Shown here piece after piece: positions 2,491 to 41,664 of a stretch of 64,000 nucleotides of DNA (its first letter is position 1; each line of letters opens with the position of its first letter). This DNA is from Escherichia phage BYEP01, in sequence record OR757453.1. One strand, written 5' to 3'. Under the pieces are notes generated by a model. That model searched no databases and was not told the origin of the DNA. It saw only the letters and a program-made list of their open reading frames with translations. The translations under genes were made by a program, and so were the position numbers.

Positions 2491-2530
2491 AATAAATACC
2501 CTTATCTATTTAAGGTAAGGGTTTATTATG
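2491..2530 (+). promoter_or_regulatory. stem-loop overlapping ribosome-binding region of gene 49
   Basis: accctta (2498-2504) pairs with taagggt (2516-2522); ATG of gene 49 at 2528. Confidence 0.4.
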
Positions 2531-3001
2531 TTATTGACTGGCAAATTATATAAAGAAGAAAAACAGAAATTTTATGATGCACAAAATGGTAAATGCTTAA
2601 TTTGCCAACGAGAACTAAATCCTGATGTTCAAGCTAATCACCTTGACCATGACCATGAATTAAATGGACCAAAAGCAGGAAAGGTACGTGGATTGCTCTG
2701 TAATCTCTGTAATGCAGCAGAAGGTCAAATGAAGCATAAATTCAATCGTTCTGGCTTAAAGGGACAAGGTGTTGATTATCTTGAATGGTTAGAAAATTTA
2801 CTTACTTATTTAAAATCCGATTACACCCAAAATAATATTCACCCTAACTTTGTTGGAGATAAATCAAAGGAATTTTCTCGTTTAGGAAAAGAGGAAATGA
2901 TGGCTGAGATGCTTCAAAGAGGATTTGAATATAATGAATCTGACACTAAAACACAATTAATAGCTTCATTTAAGAAGCAGCTTAGAAAGAGTTTAAAATG
3001 A
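2528..3001 (+). CDS. 49: endonuclease VII (Holliday junction resolvase), 157 aa
   Basis: Protein MLLTGKLYKEEKQKFYDAQNGKCLICQ... recognised as T4 gp49; zinc-binding Cys cluster; length 157 aa. Confidence 0.9.
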   Translation: MLLTGKLYKEEKQKFYDAQNGKCLICQRELNPDVQANHLDHDHELNGPKAGKVRGLLCNLCNAAEGQMKHKFNRSGLKGQGVDYLEWLENLLTYLKSDYTQNNIHPNFVGDKSKEFSRLGKEEMMAEMLQRGFEYNESDTKTQLIASFKKQLRKSLK

Positions 3002-3535
3002 CGATTGAAAAAGAAATTGAAGGATTAATTCATAAAACTAATAAAGACCTTTTAAACGAGAATGCTAATAAAGATTCTCGTGTTTTTCCAACTCAACGGG
3101 ACCTTATGGCTGGTATTGTGTCTAAACATATTGCCAAAAATATGGTCCCGTCTTTTATTATGAAAGCGCATGAAAGCGGAATTATTCACGTGCACGATAT
3201 TGATTATTCCCCTGCTCTTCCATTTACTAATTGCTGTTTAGTAGATTTAAAAGGAATGCTTGAGAATGGATTTAAGCTCGGTAATGCACAGATTGAAACT
3301 CCTAAATCAATCGGTGTTGCTACTGCAATTATGGCACAAATTACTGCGCAGGTTGCTTCTCATCAATATGGCGGAACGACTTTTGCGAATGTAGATAAAG
3401 TACTTTCTCCTTATGTTAAACGCACCTATGCAAAACATATTGAGGACGCAGAAAAATGGCAAATCGCTGACGCGTTGAATTATGCCCAATCTAAAACAGA
3501 AAAAGACGTATACGATGCATTCCAAGCTTATGAGT
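2998..3535 (+). CDS. nrdD: anaerobic ribonucleotide reductase NrdD, exon 1
   Basis: ORF aligns to N-terminal third of class III RNR; ORF ends in stop 3541-3543 inside intron; 5' splice site after U3535 inferred from P1 pairing. Confidence 0.85.
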
Positions 3536-3868
3536 TAATTTAATTCAGGCTCATGTAAAACCGGTCTAAACGGGGAACCTCTCTAGTAGACAATCCCGTG
3601 CTAAATGTTCTTTTGAACTAAATGCCTAACGACTAACCGTGATGAATGTAGCGGTGTAGAATAGAAGCTAATGCTATTCGAAACGGCCGGCATCGAAAGA
3701 TGAAGATATAGTCTAATCTGCATGGCGACATGCAGCAGTCATCTTGTATAAATAAGATTATCTTATGAATACGAGGTGAAACAATGAAATGGATAAAAGA
3801 CGTTGCATATCTATGGACTATCCAAATTTTGTTGTTTCATATAAACGGGCATGAATTTGCGTCTCATG
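3536..3868 (+). ncRNA. group I self-splicing intron in nrdD, no homing endonuclease ORF (about 333 nt)
   Basis: P1: exon atgagt (3530-3535) pairs with intron gctcat (3549-3554) with U.G at splice site; P10: ttcag (3544-3548) pairs with exon-2 start ctgaa (3869-3873); conserved P (cggggaa), Q (aatcccgtgc), R (acgactaa) and S (aagatatagtc) elements; P9 hairpin ctgcatggcgacatgcag; omega-G at 3868. Confidence 0.75.
3747..3754 (+). promoter_or_regulatory. late-promoter consensus TATAAATA inside the nrdD intron
   Basis: Exact TATAAATA; followed by SD gaggtg and in-frame ATG at 3784. Confidence 0.4.
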
Positions 3869-5160
3869 CTGAATATAATGATGAAGTAAATACACTTTTC
3901 AGCTCTAATGGACAAACGCCTTTTGTAACAATTACGTTTGGTACGGGAACCGACTGGACTGAACGAATGATTCAGAAAGCAATTCTTAAAAACCGCATTA
4001 AAGGCCTTGGTCGTGATGGGATAACTCCTATTTTCCCTAAGCTTGTTATGTTCGTTGAAGAGGGTGTTAATCTTTATAAAGACGATCCGAACTATGATAT
4101 TAAGCAGCTTGCTTTAGAGTGCGCAAGCAAAAGGATGTATCCTGATATTATTTCAGCTAAGAACAATAAAGCTATCACGGGTTCATCTATTCCTGTTTCT
4201 CCAATGGGTTGTCGTAGTTTCTTGGGCGTATGGAAAGATTCCACTGGTAATGAAATTCTTGATGGACGTAATAATCTTGGCGTTGTAACACTGAATCTTC
4301 CTCGTATTGCGTTAGATTCTTATATTGGAACACAGTTCAATGAACAGAAATTTGCCGAATTGTTCAATGAACGAATGGATTTATGTTTTGAAGCTTTGAT
4401 GTGTAGAATTAGTTCCTTAAAAGGAGTTAAAGCGACTGTTGCTCCTATTCTTTATCAAGAAGGTGCATTCGGGGTTCGTCTTAAACCTGATGACGATATA
4501 ATTGAGTTATTTAAAAACGGTAGAAGTTCAGTGTCCCTAGGATACATTGGTATTCACGAATTGAATATTCTTGTCGGTCGTGATATTGGACAAGAAATTT
4601 TAACTAAAATGAATGCTCGTCTTAAGCAGTGGACTGAAAGAACCGGTTTTGCTTTTAGTTTGTATTCTACTCCTGCTGAAAACCTGTGCTATCGCTTCTG
4701 TAAACTTGATACCGAAAAATATGGAAGTGTAAAAGATGTTACCGATAAAGGCTGGTACACTAACAGTTTCCACGTTTCAGTAGAAGAAAATATTACTCCG
4801 TTTGAAAAGATTTCTCGCGAAGCCCCGTATCATTTCATTGCGACAGGTGGTCACATTTCTTATGTTGAACTTCCTGATATGAAAAATAACTTAAAAGGCC
4901 TTGAGGCCATATGGGATTATGCTGCACAACATTTAGATTATTTTGGTGTTAACATGCCGGTAGATAAATGTTTTACATGCGGAAGTACCCATGAAATGAC
5001 TCCTACTGAAAACGGATTTGTTTGTTCTATTTGTGGAGAAACTGATCCTAAAAAGATGAACACAATAAGAAGAACATGCGGATATCTTGGAACTCCTAGC
5101 GTTGTTCCATGGAATTTAGGTAAAATGAAAGAAATGGTAAAACGAGTAAAACATGCATAG
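3869..5160 (+). CDS. nrdD: anaerobic ribonucleotide reductase NrdD, exon 2 (glycyl-radical domain)
   Basis: Contains C-terminal Cys cluster CFTCG...CSICG and glycyl radical motif RRTCGYLG; frame continuous with exon 1 after splicing (…AYE-S-EYNDEV…); total about 609 aa. Confidence 0.85.
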
Positions 5161-9220: not shown

Positions 9221-9232
9221 CTGATATCCTCT

Positions 9233-9261
9233 ATGCTTTAAGATAGATCTTCAAATATTAT
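9233..9261 (+). promoter_or_regulatory. possible middle promoter (MotA box aTGCTTtA plus -10)
   Basis: atgcttta 9233-9240 upstream of gene 55. Confidence 0.3.
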
Positions 9262-9298
9262 GATATAATAGATCTATGAATTGAGCTAAGAGGTGAAA

Positions 9299-9856
9299 AT
9301 GTCAGAAACTAAGCCTAAATATAATTACGTAAACAATAAAGAGCTTTTACAAGCTATTATTGATTGGAAAACAGAATTAGCAAATAATAAAGACCCAAAT
9401 AAAGTAGTTCGTCAGAATGATACTATCGGATTAGCCATTATGCTTATTGCAGAAGGCTTATCTAAACGTTTCAACTTTTCAGGATACACCCAGTCTTGGA
9501 AACAAGAAATGATTGCAGATGGTATAGAAGCTTCTATTAAGGGGCTTCATAATTTTGATGAAACGAAATATAAAAACCCACATGCATATATAACTCAAGC
9601 TTGTTTTAATGCATTCGTCCAACGTATTAAAAAAGAACGTAAGGAAGTTGCAAAGAAATATAGTTACTTCGTTCACAATGTCTATGACAGTCGTGACGAC
9701 GATATGGTTGCGTTAGTAGATGAAACTTTTATTCAAGACATCTACGATAAAATGACGCATTACGAAGAATCAACCTATAGAACACCAGGGGCTGAAAAGA
9801 AAAGTGTTGTAGACGATTCTCCTAGTTTGGATTTTTTATATGAGGCTAACGATTAA
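9299..9856 (+). CDS. 55: late-transcription sigma factor gp55, 185 aa
   Basis: Protein [23 protein letters not shown]... recognised as T4 gp55; ATG 9299 with SD gaggtg. Confidence 0.95.
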
Positions 9857-24005: not shown

Positions 24006-24844
24006 TTCAATTCGTAATTCCAAGCTATCAACGCGTAGGGGCAGTTTCTGCCCTTGATATGTTTCCATCTGATTATGAACCTCATATTGTAGTACGTAAA
24101 CACGAAGAAAAAGCTTATTATGACGCTTATGGGTCTAGAGCTAAAATTATAACTATTCCTGATGATGTCAATGGAATTGCTGGTACTCGTAAAGCAATTA
24201 CTGATATGTATGCAGGTCAACGAATCTGGATGATTGATGATGATACTACTATTCGTATGAGTTCAATGCGAAAGAAAGATGATCGTCGCTGCGTAGATAA
24301 AATTAATCAATTAACCCGTGAACAGTTCTATGAATTGATTCAATACGTTGAAGATGCCATGGATTGCGGGTATTATCATGGTCATGCTCGTCTACCTATT
24401 TTTAAAATTACTTCATCTTGGGGTAATTATCGTGAAAATTCATATGGATTCACAAATACATGGTATGACCTTGGAAAACTTACAACAGAACAAATTGGGT
24501 ATGGAAAAATTGATTTATGCGAAGATATGTATGCATTTCTCAATTTAATTAATCAAGGTTATCCGCATTTGGCCTTGTTCAAATATCTGGTTGTATCCGG
24601 AAAAGCACAAGCTCCTGGCGGATGTAGTTCAATTCGTAGTAATTCAAAACATAATAGAGCGCTCGAGCAAATCAATAGAGAGTTTCCAGAGCAAGCTCGT
24701 TGGAAAACTTCTAATATTGAAAAGAGAAAATCATTGGGTGAAGAAGACGAGCCATTAAAGGTTCTTCGCATGTGTGTTTCACGTAAAGAAAAATCAGAAG
24801 CGTTTCATAAGTTTAATGCTATTCATCCAATAGCAGTTGATTAA
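24002..24844 (+). CDS. glycosyltransferase at the beta-gt locus (not T4 beta-gt; possibly T2/T6-type beta-alpha-glucosyltransferase)
   Basis: 280-aa protein with DDD motif; differs in length and sequence from 351-aa T4 beta-gt; ATGA overlap with gene 42. Confidence 0.5.
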   Translation: MIQFVIPSYQRVGAVSALDMFPSDYEPHIVVRKHEEKAYYDAYGSRAKIITIPDDVNGIAGTRKAITDMYAGQRIWMIDDDTTIRMSSMRKKDDRRCVDKINQLTREQFYELIQYVEDAMDCGYYHGHARLPIFKITSSWGNYRENSYGFTNTWYDLGKLTTEQIGYGKIDLCEDMYAFLNLINQGYPHLALFKYLVVSGKAQAPGGCSSIRSNSKHNRALEQINREFPEQARWKTSNIEKRKSLGEEDEPLKVLRMCVSRKEKSEAFHKFNAIHPIAVD

Positions 24845-24847
24845 TGC

Positions 24848-24878
24848 CTAAATTTATTGTGTTATAATTACCCTATCT
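24848..24878 (+). promoter_or_regulatory. possible middle promoter for uvsX
   Basis: MotA-box-like tgcctaa then tataat 24873-24878. Confidence 0.3.
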
Positions 24879-24921
24879 TTAACCAGTGAGGAAAATATAA
24901 TGATGCCTATGGAAAAAATGA

Positions 24922-25851
24922 ATGTCTATTGCAGATTTAAAATCCCGTTTGATTAAAGCTTCCACTTCTAAAATGACTGCTGAACTGACTACATCTAAAT
25001 TCTTTAATGAAAAGGATGTAATTCGTACAAAAATCCCAATGCTTAATATCGCTATTTCTGGCGCGATTGATGGTGGTATGCAGTCTGGTTTAACCATTTT
25101 TGCAGGTCCTTCTAAACACTTTAAATCAAATATGTCTTTGACTATGGTTGCGGCGTATTTGAACAAATATCCTGACGCGGTTTGTCTATTTTATGATAGC
25201 GAATTTGGTATTACTCCAGCTTATTTGCGGTCCATGGGAGTTGACCCTGAACGAGTAATTCATACGCCAATTCAGTCAGTTGAACAACTGAAAATTGATA
25301 TGGTGAATCAGCTTGAAGCTATTGAGCGTGGTGAAAAAGTTATTGTATTCATCGACTCAATCGGTAATATGGCTTCTAAGAAAGAAACGGAAGATGCCTT
25401 GAATGAAAAATCTGTGGCAGATATGACTCGTGCTAAATCACTGAAGTCATTATTCCGTATTGTTACTCCTTATTTTAGCATTAAAAATATTCCATGTGTT
25501 GCGGTTAACCATACAATTGAAACAATTGAAATGTTTAGTAAAACCGTGATGACAGGTGGTTGTGTTATTGCTGGTACTAAAATCCAGATGTCCGATGGTT
25601 CTACTAAAGCAGTTGAAGATATTCGTCCAGGTGAGCGTGTTAAAACCATGGTCGGTGATAATGAAGTAACTTATGTTTGGGACCCCGAAACTCTGGCTGA
25701 AGGTACTCCTGAATGTTTCGAAATTGAATTCGAAGACGGTTATAAAGTAACTACTTCAGATACTCACAAGTTCCTGGTAATGGTTAAAGACATTCCAACT
25801 TGGGTTGAAGCTAAAGATTTAGTAGCTGGAATGGATTGTGTTGTAAGGTAA
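24922..25851 (+). CDS. uvsX: UvsX recombinase N-terminal extein (213 aa) fused to split-intein N-fragment (96 aa)
   Basis: N-part recognised as T4 UvsX up to ...FSKTVMTGG, then CVIAGTKIQM... intein block A and TTSDTHKF block B; TAA stop 25849-25851. Confidence 0.85.
   Translation: MSIADLKSRLIKASTSKMTAELTTSKFFNEKDVIRTKIPMLNIAISGAIDGGMQSGLTIFAGPSKHFKSNMSLTMVAAYLNKYPDAVCLFYDSEFGITPAYLRSMGVDPERVIHTPIQSVEQLKIDMVNQLEAIERGEKVIVFIDSIGNMASKKETEDALNEKSVADMTRAKSLKSLFRIVTPYFSIKNIPCVAVNHTIETIEMFSKTVMTGGCVIAGTKIQMSDGSTKAVEDIRPGERVKTMVGDNEVTYVWDPETLAEGTPECFEIEFEDGYKVTTSDTHKFLVMVKDIPTWVEAKDLVAGMDCVVR
25561..25848 (+). other. split intein N-terminal fragment (IntN)
   Basis: Begins with Cys codon 25561 after extein Gly; contains TxxH block B. 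Confidence 0.8.
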
Positions 25852-25854
25852 TAA

Positions 25855-25897
25855 ATATGGGTACCGGACTAATGTATATTTTTGAGGTACCCATATG
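25855..25897 (+). promoter_or_regulatory. 11-bp perfect stem-loop sequestering SD and start codon of the GIY-YIG gene
   Basis: atatgggtacc (25855-25865) pairs with ggtacccatat (25886-25896); ATG 25895. Confidence 0.6.
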
Positions 25898-26617
25898 AAT
25901 TTTGTCTATAAAATTGTGTTCAACGATAGAATTAAAAACGGCACTCCGCCATATTACTACATAGGGAGCAAGACAAATGCTTCTTATGTAGATGGTAAGA
26001 TTATTGACGCCCACGGTCGTGAGTACTATGGCTCATCGAGATATCCCGGATATCATGATTTTATCAATAATGTTACTGTTGAAATATTGGAGCAATATGA
26101 TGATATTAAACACACTAAACTGCTAGAGCGCGAAAATTTCTATCAGAAACAAGTAAATGTTAAAACAAATCCAGATTATTTTAATTTAGATTATGCTTGT
26201 GGGCATAATTCATATGCTAATGCTGATTTTGCATCATACAAGCATTATATAACAGGTAAATGTATTCGTCTTGAAAGAAACCATCCGCTTGTTAAATCTG
26301 GTGTGTATGTTGGCGTCACAAAAGGCGTGAAATCTTCTGATGAACACCGTAAGCACATATCAGAAGGTATTACCGGAGAAAACAATGGGTTCTATGGTAA
26401 GAAACACACTAAAGAAACAATTAATAAAATATCAGAAAAAGCAAAGAAAAGATTAAAGCATTCCCATCCTAGACAAAAAGGTGTTATCATAAACGGTATT
26501 GAATACCGGGGCGTCAGACCTGCTGCAAGAGCGTTGGGAATTAATCCTAACACAATTATCAACAAAATTAAAGCTAATATAAAAGGATGGGCTTATGCAG
26601 TAGATGCACGCGGTTAA
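25895..26617 (+). CDS. freestanding GIY-YIG homing endonuclease, 240 aa, between intein halves
   Basis: VYKIVFND...YYYIGSK GIY-YIG motif; NGFYGKKH NUMOD-like repeat; C-terminal HTH (AARALGIN). Confidence 0.8.
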   Translation: MNFVYKIVFNDRIKNGTPPYYYIGSKTNASYVDGKIIDAHGREYYGSSRYPGYHDFINNVTVEILEQYDDIKHTKLLERENFYQKQVNVKTNPDYFNLDYACGHNSYANADFASYKHYITGKCIRLERNHPLVKSGVYVGVTKGVKSSDEHRKHISEGITGENNGFYGKKHTKETINKISEKAKKRLKHSHPRQKGVIINGIEYRGVRPAARALGINPNTIINKIKANIKGWAYAVDARG

Positions 26618-26725
26618 GGCATTCGAAGATATGGTAAAAGAATTTGGAATGAACATGACAATCAAGATTATGCTTTCATGAAATATGTATATTGAAACTA
26701 GCTACTACGAAACACAAGGTAAAGT

Positions 26726-26830
26726 ATGAAAATTAAATCTGTTAAATCTGTTGGTAAAAAAGAAGTCTATGATTTGTCTGTTGCTGACGTCGAGCATTAT
26801 GTTTTAGAAAATGGTATCGTTACACACAAC
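26726..26830 (+). other. split intein C-terminal fragment (IntC)
   Basis: 35 aa ending HN followed by +1 Thr; resembles DnaE-type IntC. Confidence 0.8.
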
Positions 26831-27373
26831 ACAGGCGTAATGTATTCGGCTGATACTGTATTCATTATCGGTAAACGTCAGATTAAAGATGGTTCTGATC
26901 TTCAGGGGTATCAATTTGTTCTAAATGTAGAAAAATCTCGTACCGTTAAAGAAAAAAGTAAATTCTTTATTGATGTTAAATTTGACGGTGGTATCGATCC
27001 TTATTCTGGATTATTAGATATGGCTCTTGAATTAGGATTTGTGGTAAAACCTAAAAATGGCTGGTATGCTCGTGAATTTCTTGACGAAGAAACCGGCGAG
27101 ATGATTCGCGAAGAAAAATCTTGGCGTGCAAAAGATACCAATTGCACTACATTCTGGGGTCCTTTATTTAAGCATCAACCATTCCGAGATGCTATTAAAC
27201 GCGCTTATCAGTTAGGTGCTATTGATAGTAATGAAATTGTTGAAGCTGAAGTTGATGAATTAATTAACTCAAAGGTTGAAAAATTTAAATCTCCAGAAAG
27301 TAAAAGTAAATCAGCAGCTGATTTAGAAACTGACCTAGATCAGTTAAGTGATATGGAAGAATTTAATGAATAA
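26726..27373 (+). CDS. uvsX: split-intein C-fragment (35 aa) fused to UvsX C-terminal extein (180 aa)
   Basis: MKIKSVKSVGKKEVYDLSVADVEHYVLENGIVTHN then TGVMYSADTVFIIGK... matching T4 UvsX C-terminus; own SD aagg. Confidence 0.85.
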   Translation: MKIKSVKSVGKKEVYDLSVADVEHYVLENGIVTHNTGVMYSADTVFIIGKRQIKDGSDLQGYQFVLNVEKSRTVKEKSKFFIDVKFDGGIDPYSGLLDMALELGFVVKPKNGWYAREFLDEETGEMIREEKSWRAKDTNCTTFWGPLFKHQPFRDAIKRAYQLGAIDSNEIVEAEVDELINSKVEKFKSPESKSKSAADLETDLDQLSDMEEFNE

Positions 27374-27710
27374 AAATGATTTAGATTTAGATTTAGAAAT
27401 TATCGACGAATCCCCCTCTTCGGAGGGGGAAGAAGAAAGAAAAGAACGTCTTTTTAATGAATCTCTTAAGATAATTAAATCTGCCATGGAAAATGTTATC
27501 CAGGAGATTGTCATTAAACTAGAAGACGGTTCTACACACATTGTGTATGTGACAAAATTAGATTGGGTTGATGGAAAAGTCGTAATGGACTTTGCTGTTC
27601 TTGACCAAGAAAGAAAAGCTGAGTTAGCTCCTCATGTAGAAAAATGTATTACAATGCAACTACAAGATGCATTTAATAAAAGGTCAAAGAAAAAATTTAA
27701 ATTCTTTTAA
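27366..27710 (+). CDS. 40: head vertex assembly protein gp40 (start uncertain, 27348 or 27366)
   Basis: Position between uvsX and 41; ATGA overlap with uvsX stop. Confidence 0.6.
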   Translation: MNKNDLDLDLEIIDESPSSEGEEERKERLFNESLKIIKSAMENVIQEIVIKLEDGSTHIVYVTKLDWVDGKVVMDFAVLDQERKAELAPHVEKCITMQLQDAFNKRSKKKFKFF

Positions 27711-33423: not shown

Positions 33424-34087
33424 ACAAAAATTTTATAGAACATATATAGTAAAAGTTAGGACGCCGAAAGGCGTCTTTTGGTACGCTGGGAAACATGAAT
33501 CATTTATTGTAAATCCATATGATGATAAATATCCGGGTTCAGGCAAAATACTATGGAACATATATCGTAAGTATGGTTTTAATTATAAAATACGTTGGTC
33601 AAAATGCCATGGTTCTAGAGAAAAATCATATGAAGTTGAACGCGAGCTAATATCTGCATTAAAACGTAAACACCCAGATACTTGCATTAATATTTCTCCT
33701 GGTGGTCAGGGTGGAGAAGGAAGAAAATGGACTGAGCAACAACGATTAGAACATAAACTTAGATTAAACAACCCTGAAACAAAAACTCGGATGAAGAATT
33801 CACAACGTATAGCCCAAAATAGAGCAGAACGAAAAGCTCGGCAATCTGAAGTAATGAAAAAGTTTTATTCAAATGGCGGAAATAAAAAGATTTCAGAAGG
33901 AACTTCAAGGGCGCAAAGAAAAGCACCGCATTGGCATGAACCACTTAAAAGCGAAATACACGAGTTATGGGTTTCTTTAGGTAAACCAGCAACAGGCCCG
34001 GTTGTAAAGGCGCTTAAAGGAAAATATGATGTAACAAGTTCAGCTCTTAAGAATTTAATTTACTTATTCAGAAAAGAAGATGTATAA
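33413..34087 (+). CDS. segF: GIY-YIG homing endonuclease SegF-like, 224 aa
   Basis: YIVKVRTPKGVFWYAGKH GIY-YIG variant; position between 56 and soc; length 224 aa. Confidence 0.75.
   Translation: MGIKQKFYRTYIVKVRTPKGVFWYAGKHESFIVNPYDDKYPGSGKILWNIYRKYGFNYKIRWSKCHGSREKSYEVERELISALKRKHPDTCINISPGGQGGEGRKWTEQQRLEHKLRLNNPETKTRMKNSQRIAQNRAERKARQSEVMKKFYSNGGNKKISEGTSRAQRKAPHWHEPLKSEIHELWVSLGKPATGPVVKALKGKYDVTSSALKNLIYLFRKEDV
33459..33480 (+). terminator. terminator-like hairpin inside the 5' end of segF coding region
   Basis: gacgcc-gaaa-ggcgtc plus TTTT, 36 nt after gene 56 stop. Confidence 0.45.
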
Positions 34088-34090
34088 ATA
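34083..34090 (+). promoter_or_regulatory. late promoter TATAAATA
   Basis: Exact TATAAATA about 30 nt upstream of soc ATG. Confidence 0.6.
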
Positions 34091-34120: not shown

Positions 34121-34366
34121 ATGGCTAGTACTCGCGGTTATGTTAATATCAAAACATTTGAGCAGAAATTAGATGGAAATAAGAAAATTGAAGGAAAGGA
34201 AATTTCAGTAGCTTTCCCTCTTTATTCTGACGTTCACAAAATTTCTGGCGCTCATTACCAGACATTCCCTTCAGAAAAAGCAGCATATACTACTGTATAT
34301 GAAGAAAATCAGCGTACTGAATGGATTGCTGCAAACGAAGATTTGTGGAAAGTAACTGGCGGTTAA
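34121..34366 (+). CDS. soc: small outer capsid protein Soc
   Basis: Protein MASTRGYVNIKTFEQKLDGNKKIEG... recognised as T4 Soc. Confidence 0.9.
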   Translation: MASTRGYVNIKTFEQKLDGNKKIEGKEISVAFPLYSDVHKISGAHYQTFPSEKAAYTTVYEENQRTEWIAANEDLWKVTGG

Positions 34367-41532: not shown

Positions 41533-41664
41533 ATGAAAATTTATCGTGTTGAATCATCGTTTAGTATTCTTGATTATGAAGATGGTGTTGAACTTCTGAA
41601 TGTTGTTCATGCAGGTGATTTTAGTGTAGTACCTCGTAGTGCAGTGGTAGCTATTTTGAATTAA
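41533..41664 (+). CDS. hypothetical protein, 43 aa
   Basis: Untracked ORF with SD gagga downstream of early promoter. Confidence 0.4.
   Translation: MKIYRVESSFSILDYEDGVELLNVVHAGDFSVVPRSAVVAILN

Follow-up and report, generated by a model that had tools for sequence, protein, structure and literature searches.

What does a perfect 11-bp hairpin do when it lies across the translation start of a putative homing endonuclease gene, itself lodged between the two pieces of a split uvsX? The window in which this arrangement occurs, a stretch of 64,000 nucleotides to which all coordinates refer unless another locus is named, comes from a T4-like phage (Tequatrovirus), and its part 24900-27400 is 99% identical to Escherichia phage vB_EcoM_SYGD1. 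A sequence-only reading of the window had drawn attention to the hairpin and likened it to the translational occlusion described for T4 endonuclease genes; it lacked a late-promoter-like box, AATAAATA, that overlaps the 5' arm. Since such a box is present, the arrangement points to a temporal switch and not just to a damper on expression, and we think it likely that a T4-type switch of this kind, of which the hairpin would be the RNA half, acts on the endonuclease gene in a split-intein uvsX.

A split uvsX gene with an endonuclease gene between its halves

In the window, uvsX is found in two pieces, and the list of open reading frames places a frame of 240 codons between them on the same strand (Table 1). 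The N-terminal piece closes with an N-intein half that gives weak matches to the Pfam Hint and Intein_splicing models. The signature of a fractured gene is found on both sides: the N-half carries CVIAG...TSDTH, that is Cys1 and the block B TxxH, and the C-half runs ...IVTHN/TGVMYSAD, with HN followed by the nucleophile (here and below, a slash within a sequence marks a junction). The junction ...TGG/CV... is common to all orthologues. On these signatures, the two uvsX halves with the intervening frame represent a fractured-gene arrangement, in which trans-splicing of the protein halves is predicted. The endonuclease gene, described earlier as intein-embedded, does stand between intein halves; the intein itself is not contiguous, and its halves are separately translated. 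An intein-less relative is contiguous across the junction, reading ...ACAGGTGGT/ACAGGCGTAATG..., with ...GGT/ACA... running on without interruption. Uninterrupted uvsX was found in more than 700 related phage records and the insertion in eight.

Table 1. Features of the split uvsX locus, sites compared with it elsewhere in the window, and stems of distant relatives
Feature	Position	Strand	Basis or remark
Middle-promoter-like site upstream of uvsX	24845..24868	+	read from sequence; TGCCTA 24845-24850 (MotA-box-like), 12-nt spacer, TATAAT 24863-24868
uvsX N-terminal gene	24922..25851	+	ORF list; Pfam RecA 9e-9
N-extein of uvsX	24922..25560		
N-intein half (96 aa, CVIAG...TSDTH...CVVR)	25561..25848		
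TAA stop of the N-terminal gene	25849..25851		
Late-promoter-like box AATAAATA	25850..25857	+	T4 consensus TATAAATA at -13..-6
Hairpin 5' arm, atatgggtacc	25855..25865	+	perfect reverse complement of 3' arm
Operator-like sequence GGTACCGGACTAATGTAT	25860..25877	+	15/18 match to intein-less uvsX GGT/ACAGGCGTAATGTAT
Predicted late transcription start, A	25863	+	-13..-6 rule; 6 nt after box
Hairpin loop, 20 nt	25866..25885	+	conservation by halves
Hairpin 3' arm, ggtacccatat	25886..25896	+	over SD and AUG
Homing endonuclease gene, 240 aa	25895..26617	+	tblastn, Pfam, profile matches
Endonuclease/uvsX-C spacer	26618..26725		
Middle-promoter-like site in the spacer	26671..26693	+	read from sequence; TGCTTT 26671-26676, 11 nt, TATATT 26688-26693
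uvsX C-terminal gene	26726..27373	+	T4_UVSX_C 2e-39
C-intein half (35 aa, ...VTHN)	26726..26830		
C-extein TGVMYSAD...	from 26831		
Gene 49, box AATAAATA	2491..2498	+	ATG at 2528
soc, box TATAAATA	34083..34090	+	ATG at 34121
PspYZU05 stem			cattagtttat / ataaactaatg
L051 stem			taactcctat / gtaggagtta
L052 stem			cctaagtaggtt / aacctacttagg
L053/54 stem			gtacattacccttat / ataagggtaatgtat
L059 stem			cattgctcg / cgagcaatg

The C-terminal gene has a Shine-Dalgarno (SD) sequence of its own (AAGGT, 26716-26720), which is kept, as cAAGGTaaa, in every phage compared. Both UvsX halves can thus be produced without expression of the nuclease gene. The endonuclease stop codon overlaps the uvsX-C ATG by 4 nt in other genera (CF-SP2, UFV01, SEA1, EniLVp02), and a coupling of uvsX-C to the endonuclease through this overlap, which could contradict early silencing, was considered and rejected, as the conserved SD precedes uvsX-C everywhere.

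T4 middle promoters are laid out as a MotA box followed by a -10 element, and a site of this appearance stands upstream of uvsX. This putative middle promoter is the likely source of read-through transcripts that would carry the whole hairpin; a terminator scan found no + strand terminator between the site and the hairpin. A similar putative promoter in the spacer behind the endonuclease gene could drive uvsX-C independently. It is missing from RPN226, where about 70 nt have gone and the site with them, and from the other genera; in ELT1 and HY03 there is a 34-nt insertion upstream of it.

The protein encoded between the halves shows 46% identity to T4 SegG over residues 1-103 (tblastn to T4 segG). 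Its C-terminal half contains NUMOD3 (3e-10) and an HTH, like the DNA-binding domain of I-TevI, with NUMOD1 weak; a profile of the endonuclease hits the structure of that I-TevI domain (1I3J) at E 5e-4, and hhalign pairs LLERENFYQ...YFNL with the E75/N90 region of I-TevI at E 8e-6. There are further matches to PHROG 7504 and 314, and a single-protein scan of viral contigs returned mostly relatives with NUMOD3 only. The GIY...YIG module, here VYK...YYIGS, and the predicted catalytic residues E80 and N97 are invariant in seven of seven orthologues. The earlier assignment to the GIY-YIG class stands through homology to SegG and I-TevI, without a match to the Pfam GIY-YIG model at E <= 1 in any of the seven orthologues, a miss that we read as the sensitivity limit of the model for the SegG branch and not as counter-evidence. 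By these homologies the middle frame encodes a SegG/I-TevI-like GIY-YIG homing endonuclease, with predicted nuclease activity. Elsewhere, HY03 has a homing endonuclease gene of about 770 nt inside nrdD, and the window (about 3000-3830, compared with 2878-4409 of locus L048) is without it.

A stable hairpin over the ribosome-binding site

The pairing that had been read from the sequence is indeed perfect over 11 bp and encloses a 20-nt loop. Its 3' arm, as claimed, covers part of the translation start, namely the last two bases of the SD GAGG (25884-25887) and the AU of the AUG (25895-25897). Calculation of the fold, which had been proposed as a check, gave the same stem throughout: it is present in the MFE and centroid structures in the 76-nt and 251-nt contexts, as well as in contexts of 86-241 nt (RNAfold), and on its own is worth about -16 to -17 kcal/mol. 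The fold of the 76-nt segment has z = -2.2, and 6 of 200 shuffles did equally well. The 64 kb hold three perfect hairpins of at least 11 bp with short loops, where a rough expectation is one or two; with three such hairpins and a modest z, the existence of the hairpin alone is not improbable. What is improbable is its position and its conservation.

The position can be put into figures by comparing the energy needed to open the segment from -13 to +3 at 89 gene starts, mapped from the HY03 annotation. The median is 4.65 kcal/mol, and the endonuclease start ranks fourth with 14.1. First in rank is the start of gene 55, the late sigma factor (ATG 9299, 9229-9324; 15.3 kcal/mol), which has no late box nearby, and the starts at 41533, 31508, 36567 and 1882 also cost more than 12 kcal/mol to open. 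In the enteric group the 5' half of the hairpin loop (ggactaatgta) is 91% conserved and the 3' half 53%, with indels. An Rfam search of 25600-26900 gave no relevant match, and a scan for sigma-70 promoters found none at the hairpin.

A mini-ORF of 13 codons begins at an ATG in the 5' arm (25857) and ends at a TGA (25896-25898) that overlaps the endonuclease ATG as ATGA; 8 nt upstream of its ATG there is an AAGGT. We considered this mini-ORF as a coupling device and rejected it, since by eye it lies in another frame in RPN226 and CF-SP2 and has no ATG in Pm5461.

A late-promoter-like box at the foot of the hairpin

The AATAAATA box shares bases with the uvsX-N stop codon on one side and, on the other, with the 5' arm, whose first 3 nt it includes. 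It agrees with TATAAATA at seven of eight positions, and the deviating base is an A at -13. The T4 late promoter consists of TATAAATA at -13 to -6, in which T at -13 is poorly conserved and A is common in T4-like phages (PMC1524935). By this rule (PMC1524935) transcription is predicted to start inside the 5' arm, at A25863; the sequence-only reading had envisaged a transcript starting inside the loop, and a late start is indeed predicted within the hairpin, if some nucleotides earlier, in the arm. Of the 11 nt in the 5' arm, the RNA from this start would retain 3 and be without the other 8. Opening of the SD-AUG region is computed to cost 2.2-2.3 kcal/mol for RNAs that start at 25863-25865 versus 11.2-15.5 kcal/mol for longer RNAs, and with another span and context the values are 4.0 kcal/mol for the late RNA versus 14.1 kcal/mol.

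The motif WATAAATA occurs in nine copies in the window, five of them on the + strand, against 25.8 +/- 5 expected, a depletion that is consistent with selection against stray late promoters. Because the motif is so strongly avoided, the copy in the hairpin is unlikely to be accidental. In the stretch compared for nrdD, a TATAAATA is found at 3747, 82 nt ahead of the start mapped at 3829.

On the + strand of the early region, only three genes, namely gene 49, the endonuclease gene and soc, have both a WATAAATA no more than 70 nt away and an opening cost above the median. They share one geometry: the 5' arm has the box at its foot and contains the predicted +1, and the 3' arm lies over the SD and AUG. 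The gene 49 leader of T4, used as a control and compared by sequence, is identical to that of the window and also uses AATAAATA. In T4, inhibitory structures at the translation initiation regions of e, soc, 49 and I-TevI, which late transcripts escape, are documented (PMC3014915, PMC2988022); for e, an effect of about 100-fold on expression has been reported (PMC3014915).

Based on this geometry, we suggest that long transcripts from upstream of uvsX would run through the junction early and in the middle period. In this read-through RNA the 11-bp stem would form and bury part of the endonuclease SD and the AUG, and ribosomes would translate uvsX-N and uvsX-C from their own SDs and not the nuclease. 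Late in infection, gp55-RNA polymerase would use the box and start at about A25863; the truncated RNA would leave the SD and AUG free, and the nuclease would be made late. We infer that the late promoter works, that the read-through transcripts exist and that translation follows accessibility. The first part of this course, in which nuclease expression is kept low on read-through uvsX RNA, had been proposed by analogy with T4, and it now draws support from the stable stem on the SD and AUG, from compensatory changes and from stems rebuilt in relatives. Silencing may be incomplete: as the uvsX-N stop codon ends only 3 nt before the 5' arm, terminating ribosomes may open the stem in part and allow some early nuclease expression.

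Conservation and independent re-creation of the module

The comparison covered 24922-27373 of the window and the loci L001-L008, L042-L047, L050-L054, L059 and L060. A split uvsX with an endonuclease gene between its halves is present in six metagenome loci and in 14 phage records, the latter from six genera or more; throughout, a split intein and a GIY-YIG endonuclease are found at one and the same insertion point (...GG/C...HN/TG...). The carriers belong to Tequatrovirus, Gelderlandvirus, Karamvirus and Jiangsuvirus, with Proteus phage Pm5461, Klebsiella phage Lion_ER11 and Vibrio phage EniLVp02 in addition.

Five distinct junctions from four genera can be aligned, those of the window, RPN226, CF-SP2, Pm5461 and SEA1 (the metagenome locus L050 repeats the CF-SP2 junction). 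In this alignment 52 of 52 cells of the 11 pairs are paired. In four of the 11 pairs both partners have changed (two cases of G-C to A-U, one of A-U to G-C and one of U-A to C-G), and Pm5461 provides one U-G pair. Such complete pairing together with compensatory changes was matched by none of 500 shuffles, and when the partner was slid by 1-3 columns, pairing fell to 18-54%. We conclude from this pattern of substitutions that the stem is under selection.

In all, there are 12 distinct split-uvsX junctions with this endonuclease family, and in nine of them a stem lies over or abuts the SD and AUG. In these nine, opening costs 7.6-23.5 kcal/mol in the read-through RNA and 1.9-5.2 in the predicted late RNA, and a TATAAATA-like or CTAAATA box, the latter being the Aeh1-type consensus (PMC1524935), is so placed that the predicted late RNA is without the 5' arm. 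The stems of PspYZU05, L051, L052, L053/54 and L059 cannot be aligned with that of the window, yet have the same layout. Perfect TATAAATA boxes are found in PspYZU05, L051, L052 and L053/54; in L052 this box precedes the stem, and it is a AATAAATA in the loop that would free the ribosome-binding site. CTAAATA is the box of L059 and of EniLVp02, and the boxes of further relatives are progressively poorer: GATAAATA in CF-SP2, ATTAAATA in Pm5461 and AATAAATG in SEA1. In PspYZU05, L051, L052, L053/54, L059, CF-SP2 and Pm5461 the late start is predicted to lie within the 5' arm or the loop; EniLVp02, whose stem is not over the ribosome-binding site, is an exception.

The three remaining junctions are exceptions of different kinds. 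In SEA1, a Salmonella phage (L044 1441-1503), three compensatory changes preserve the stem, whereas the box is degraded; a 17-nt insertion parts the stem from the downstream ATG, and the start has been annotated at another ATG, in frame, by the foot of the stem. In EniLVp02 there are 16 nt between the end of the 14-bp stem and the ATG, and the hairpin of L060, with 5-7 bp, is merely weak.

Free-standing homologues of the endonuclease gene, located between genes 55 and 47 in metagenomic T4-like contigs (L062-L065, L075, L076), have a perfect TATAAATA followed by a hairpin over the start codon. The control module therefore accompanies the nuclease family outside fractured genes too. That it is rebuilt with unrelated sequences wherever this family lands argues that silence of the nuclease until the late period is something it needs in order to persist, and no accident.

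Other explanations of the hairpin

A different role for the hairpin would be translational coupling, in which a ribosome that ends uvsX-N melts the 5' arm and loads the endonuclease SD, with a low and fixed ratio of nuclease to UvsX-N as the outcome. A ribosome footprint holds several nucleotides downstream of the stop codon unpaired, and the gap between stop and arm is only 3-4 nt in the window group and CF-SP2 and 6-8 nt in SEA1, EniLVp02 and Pm5461. In PspYZU05, L052 and L054 it is 11, 12 and 19 nt, yet these junctions have strong sequestering stems and a perfect late box; with such gaps in three lineages, coupling is not the conserved logic. Coupling also leaves unexplained why the late box is conserved and why it holds a fixed place relative to the arm, and the free-standing homologues between 55 and 47 carry the same module of box and hairpin. 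We thus consider it unlikely that coupling is what the hairpin is for. A role at the 3' end of the uvsX-N message, as a stabiliser, processing site or terminator, is suggested by the 3 nt between the stop codon and the hairpin and by a TTTT 5 nt past the stem, but we regard it as very improbable. The terminator scan found no terminator-like site on the + strand in 24700-27500, a 20-nt loop with no adjacent T-run is a misfit for an intrinsic terminator, and termination here would cut off uvsX-C, 40 and 41; for any 3'-end function, the constant place of the 3' arm on the SD and AUG is left unexplained.

The palindrome might instead be mainly a protein site at the DNA level, with the endonuclease itself as candidate binder and RNA pairing as a by-product. 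In favour of this, 15 of the 18 positions in 25860-25877 agree with the uvsX homing site, conservation is seen in the 5' half of the loop, and the endonuclease has an I-TevI-like DNA-binding domain. The stretch that resembles the homing site is, however, not the palindrome, since from the 5' arm it takes in no more than 6 nt, the rest being loop sequence; moreover the four compensatory stem positions, the U-G pair of Pm5461 and the different stems of distant relatives fit RNA pairing and not a symmetric site. A DNA site in place of the RNA switch therefore seems quite improbable to us, and an operator is kept as an addition to the switch and not as its replacement. That the palindrome arose by chance and has no function is scarcely credible: although the window holds three perfect hairpins of this length and the z-score is only -2.2, chance is already contradicted by the comparative data, that is by the covariation of the stem and its independent re-creation in unalignable junctions, and the hairpin co-occurs with a depleted motif, WATAAATA. 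We thus retain the temporal switch as the preferred reading.

Relation to known systems

A hairpin on the ribosome-binding site combined with a late promoter is known for I-TevI (in the T4 td intron), I-TevII, I-TevIII, T4 segB and Aeh1 mobE (PMC2988022, PMC3014915). The likeness to I-TevI is close: in both, the endonuclease gene sits, here by prediction, on the early/middle polycistronic message of an essential gene, a stem sequesters its ribosome-binding site, and a late promoter, putative in the present case, is so placed that the late RNA is without the 5' strand of the stem; in both, a GIY-YIG nuclease domain is joined to a DNA-binding domain of the I-TevI type. The host element differs, being a group I intron for I-TevI and a split intein in uvsX here, where the box has A at -13. 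With a split intein in place of a group I intron, there is no conflict between splicing and translation of the kind faced by I-TevI. T4 genes 49, soc and e, which are late genes located within early units, have the identical geometry, but none of them is a mobile nuclease gene; they belong to the ordinary genes of the phage.

Fractured genes, in which split inteins flank a free-standing endonuclease gene, were described by Dassa et al. in 2009 (PMC2677866), with a hairpin upstream of 15 of 16 endonuclease ORFs, ten of them containing TATAAATA (PMC2677866). The order found in those cases is the one seen here: the host N-part with the N-intein, then the endonuclease ORF, some of these encoding GIY-YIG nucleases, and the C-intein with the host C-part. 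The overlap of the nuclease stop with the downstream start also recurs, as in CF-SP2, UFV01, SEA1 and EniLVp02. Their host genes, from marine metagenomes, were gp41, IMPDH, DnaE, NrdA, NrdJ, ligase and terminase, with uvsX only as a neighbour; here uvsX is itself the host gene, and the carriers are cultured T4-like phages of enterobacteria, Proteus, Pseudomonas and Vibrio. [quoted passage not shown]

No description of a split-intein uvsX was found in the literature searched, in which the sole paper with both terms has uvsX as a neighbouring gene. The locus thus appears undescribed in that literature, and the principle is known. As the mechanism is established for e, soc, 49, I-TevI, I-TevII, I-TevIII, segB and mobE, and since 2009 for fractured genes, the uvsX locus is a new case of an established principle; understanding of the textbook T4 mechanism is not changed by it. 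What the locus adds is an extension of the fractured-gene arrangement, and of control by hairpin and late promoter, to uvsX, the phage RecA homologue. The carriers are cultured and tractable, including phages of E. coli, Salmonella, Proteus, Klebsiella, Enterobacter, Pseudomonas and Vibrio, which makes both the regulation and the split intein testable.

A candidate operator for autorepression

The late promoter of I-TevI is repressed by I-TevI itself, at an operator with 15 of 20 positions like those of its homing site (PMC2988022). At the locus studied here, too, a homing-site-like sequence lies by the predicted late promoter, with 15 of 18 matches. It is in register, spanning -3 to +15 around the intein insertion point and likewise -3 to +15 of the predicted late start. 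A 15/18 match was reached by 4 of 2000 shuffles, and the best match for the operator-like 18-mer elsewhere in the window is 13/18. A comparison of every 18-mer of the 63-nt upstream region with the window (both strands) and with the intein-less allele, about 260,000 positions, gave only three matches of 15/18, the uvsX junction among them. The stretch is carried by the well-conserved 5' half of the loop.

The resemblance fades in the relatives. It is 14/18 in RPN226 and Pm5461, which share ancestry with the window, 13/18 in L054 (p about 0.08), 12/18 in PspYZU05, CF-SP2 and SEA1, and 11/18 in L052, none of the values from L054 downwards being significant individually. A TAATGTA core motif occurs in three of eight independent lineages against 0.056 expected per region, which is suggestive but post hoc. 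By eye, the 36 nt before A25863 contain no C, so that a CNNNG cleavage motif like that of I-TevI is absent there; the cleavage preference of this enzyme may differ.

We tentatively propose, as a possibility that we hold to be somewhat less probable than its alternatives together, that 25860-25877 is a functional operator through which the endonuclease would bind its own promoter with the I-TevI-like domain and shut off late transcription; the resemblance could otherwise be an evolutionary relic or due to chance. If the operator is real, no earlier intein-associated homing endonuclease would be known to repress itself, which suggests that promoter, operator, hairpin and nuclease gene would move as one self-regulating cassette. 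The homing-site-like sequence by the promoter also offers a concrete and cheap handle on how general autorepression of the I-TevI type is.

Two further sequence recurrences were seen in relatives. The loop motif ACTAATGTATA is found again in PspYZU05 (L045 1440-1500), on the opposite strand, and in L054 (1454-1503) the 3'-arm sequence GGGTAATGTAT is identical to the first codons of that locus's own C-extein.
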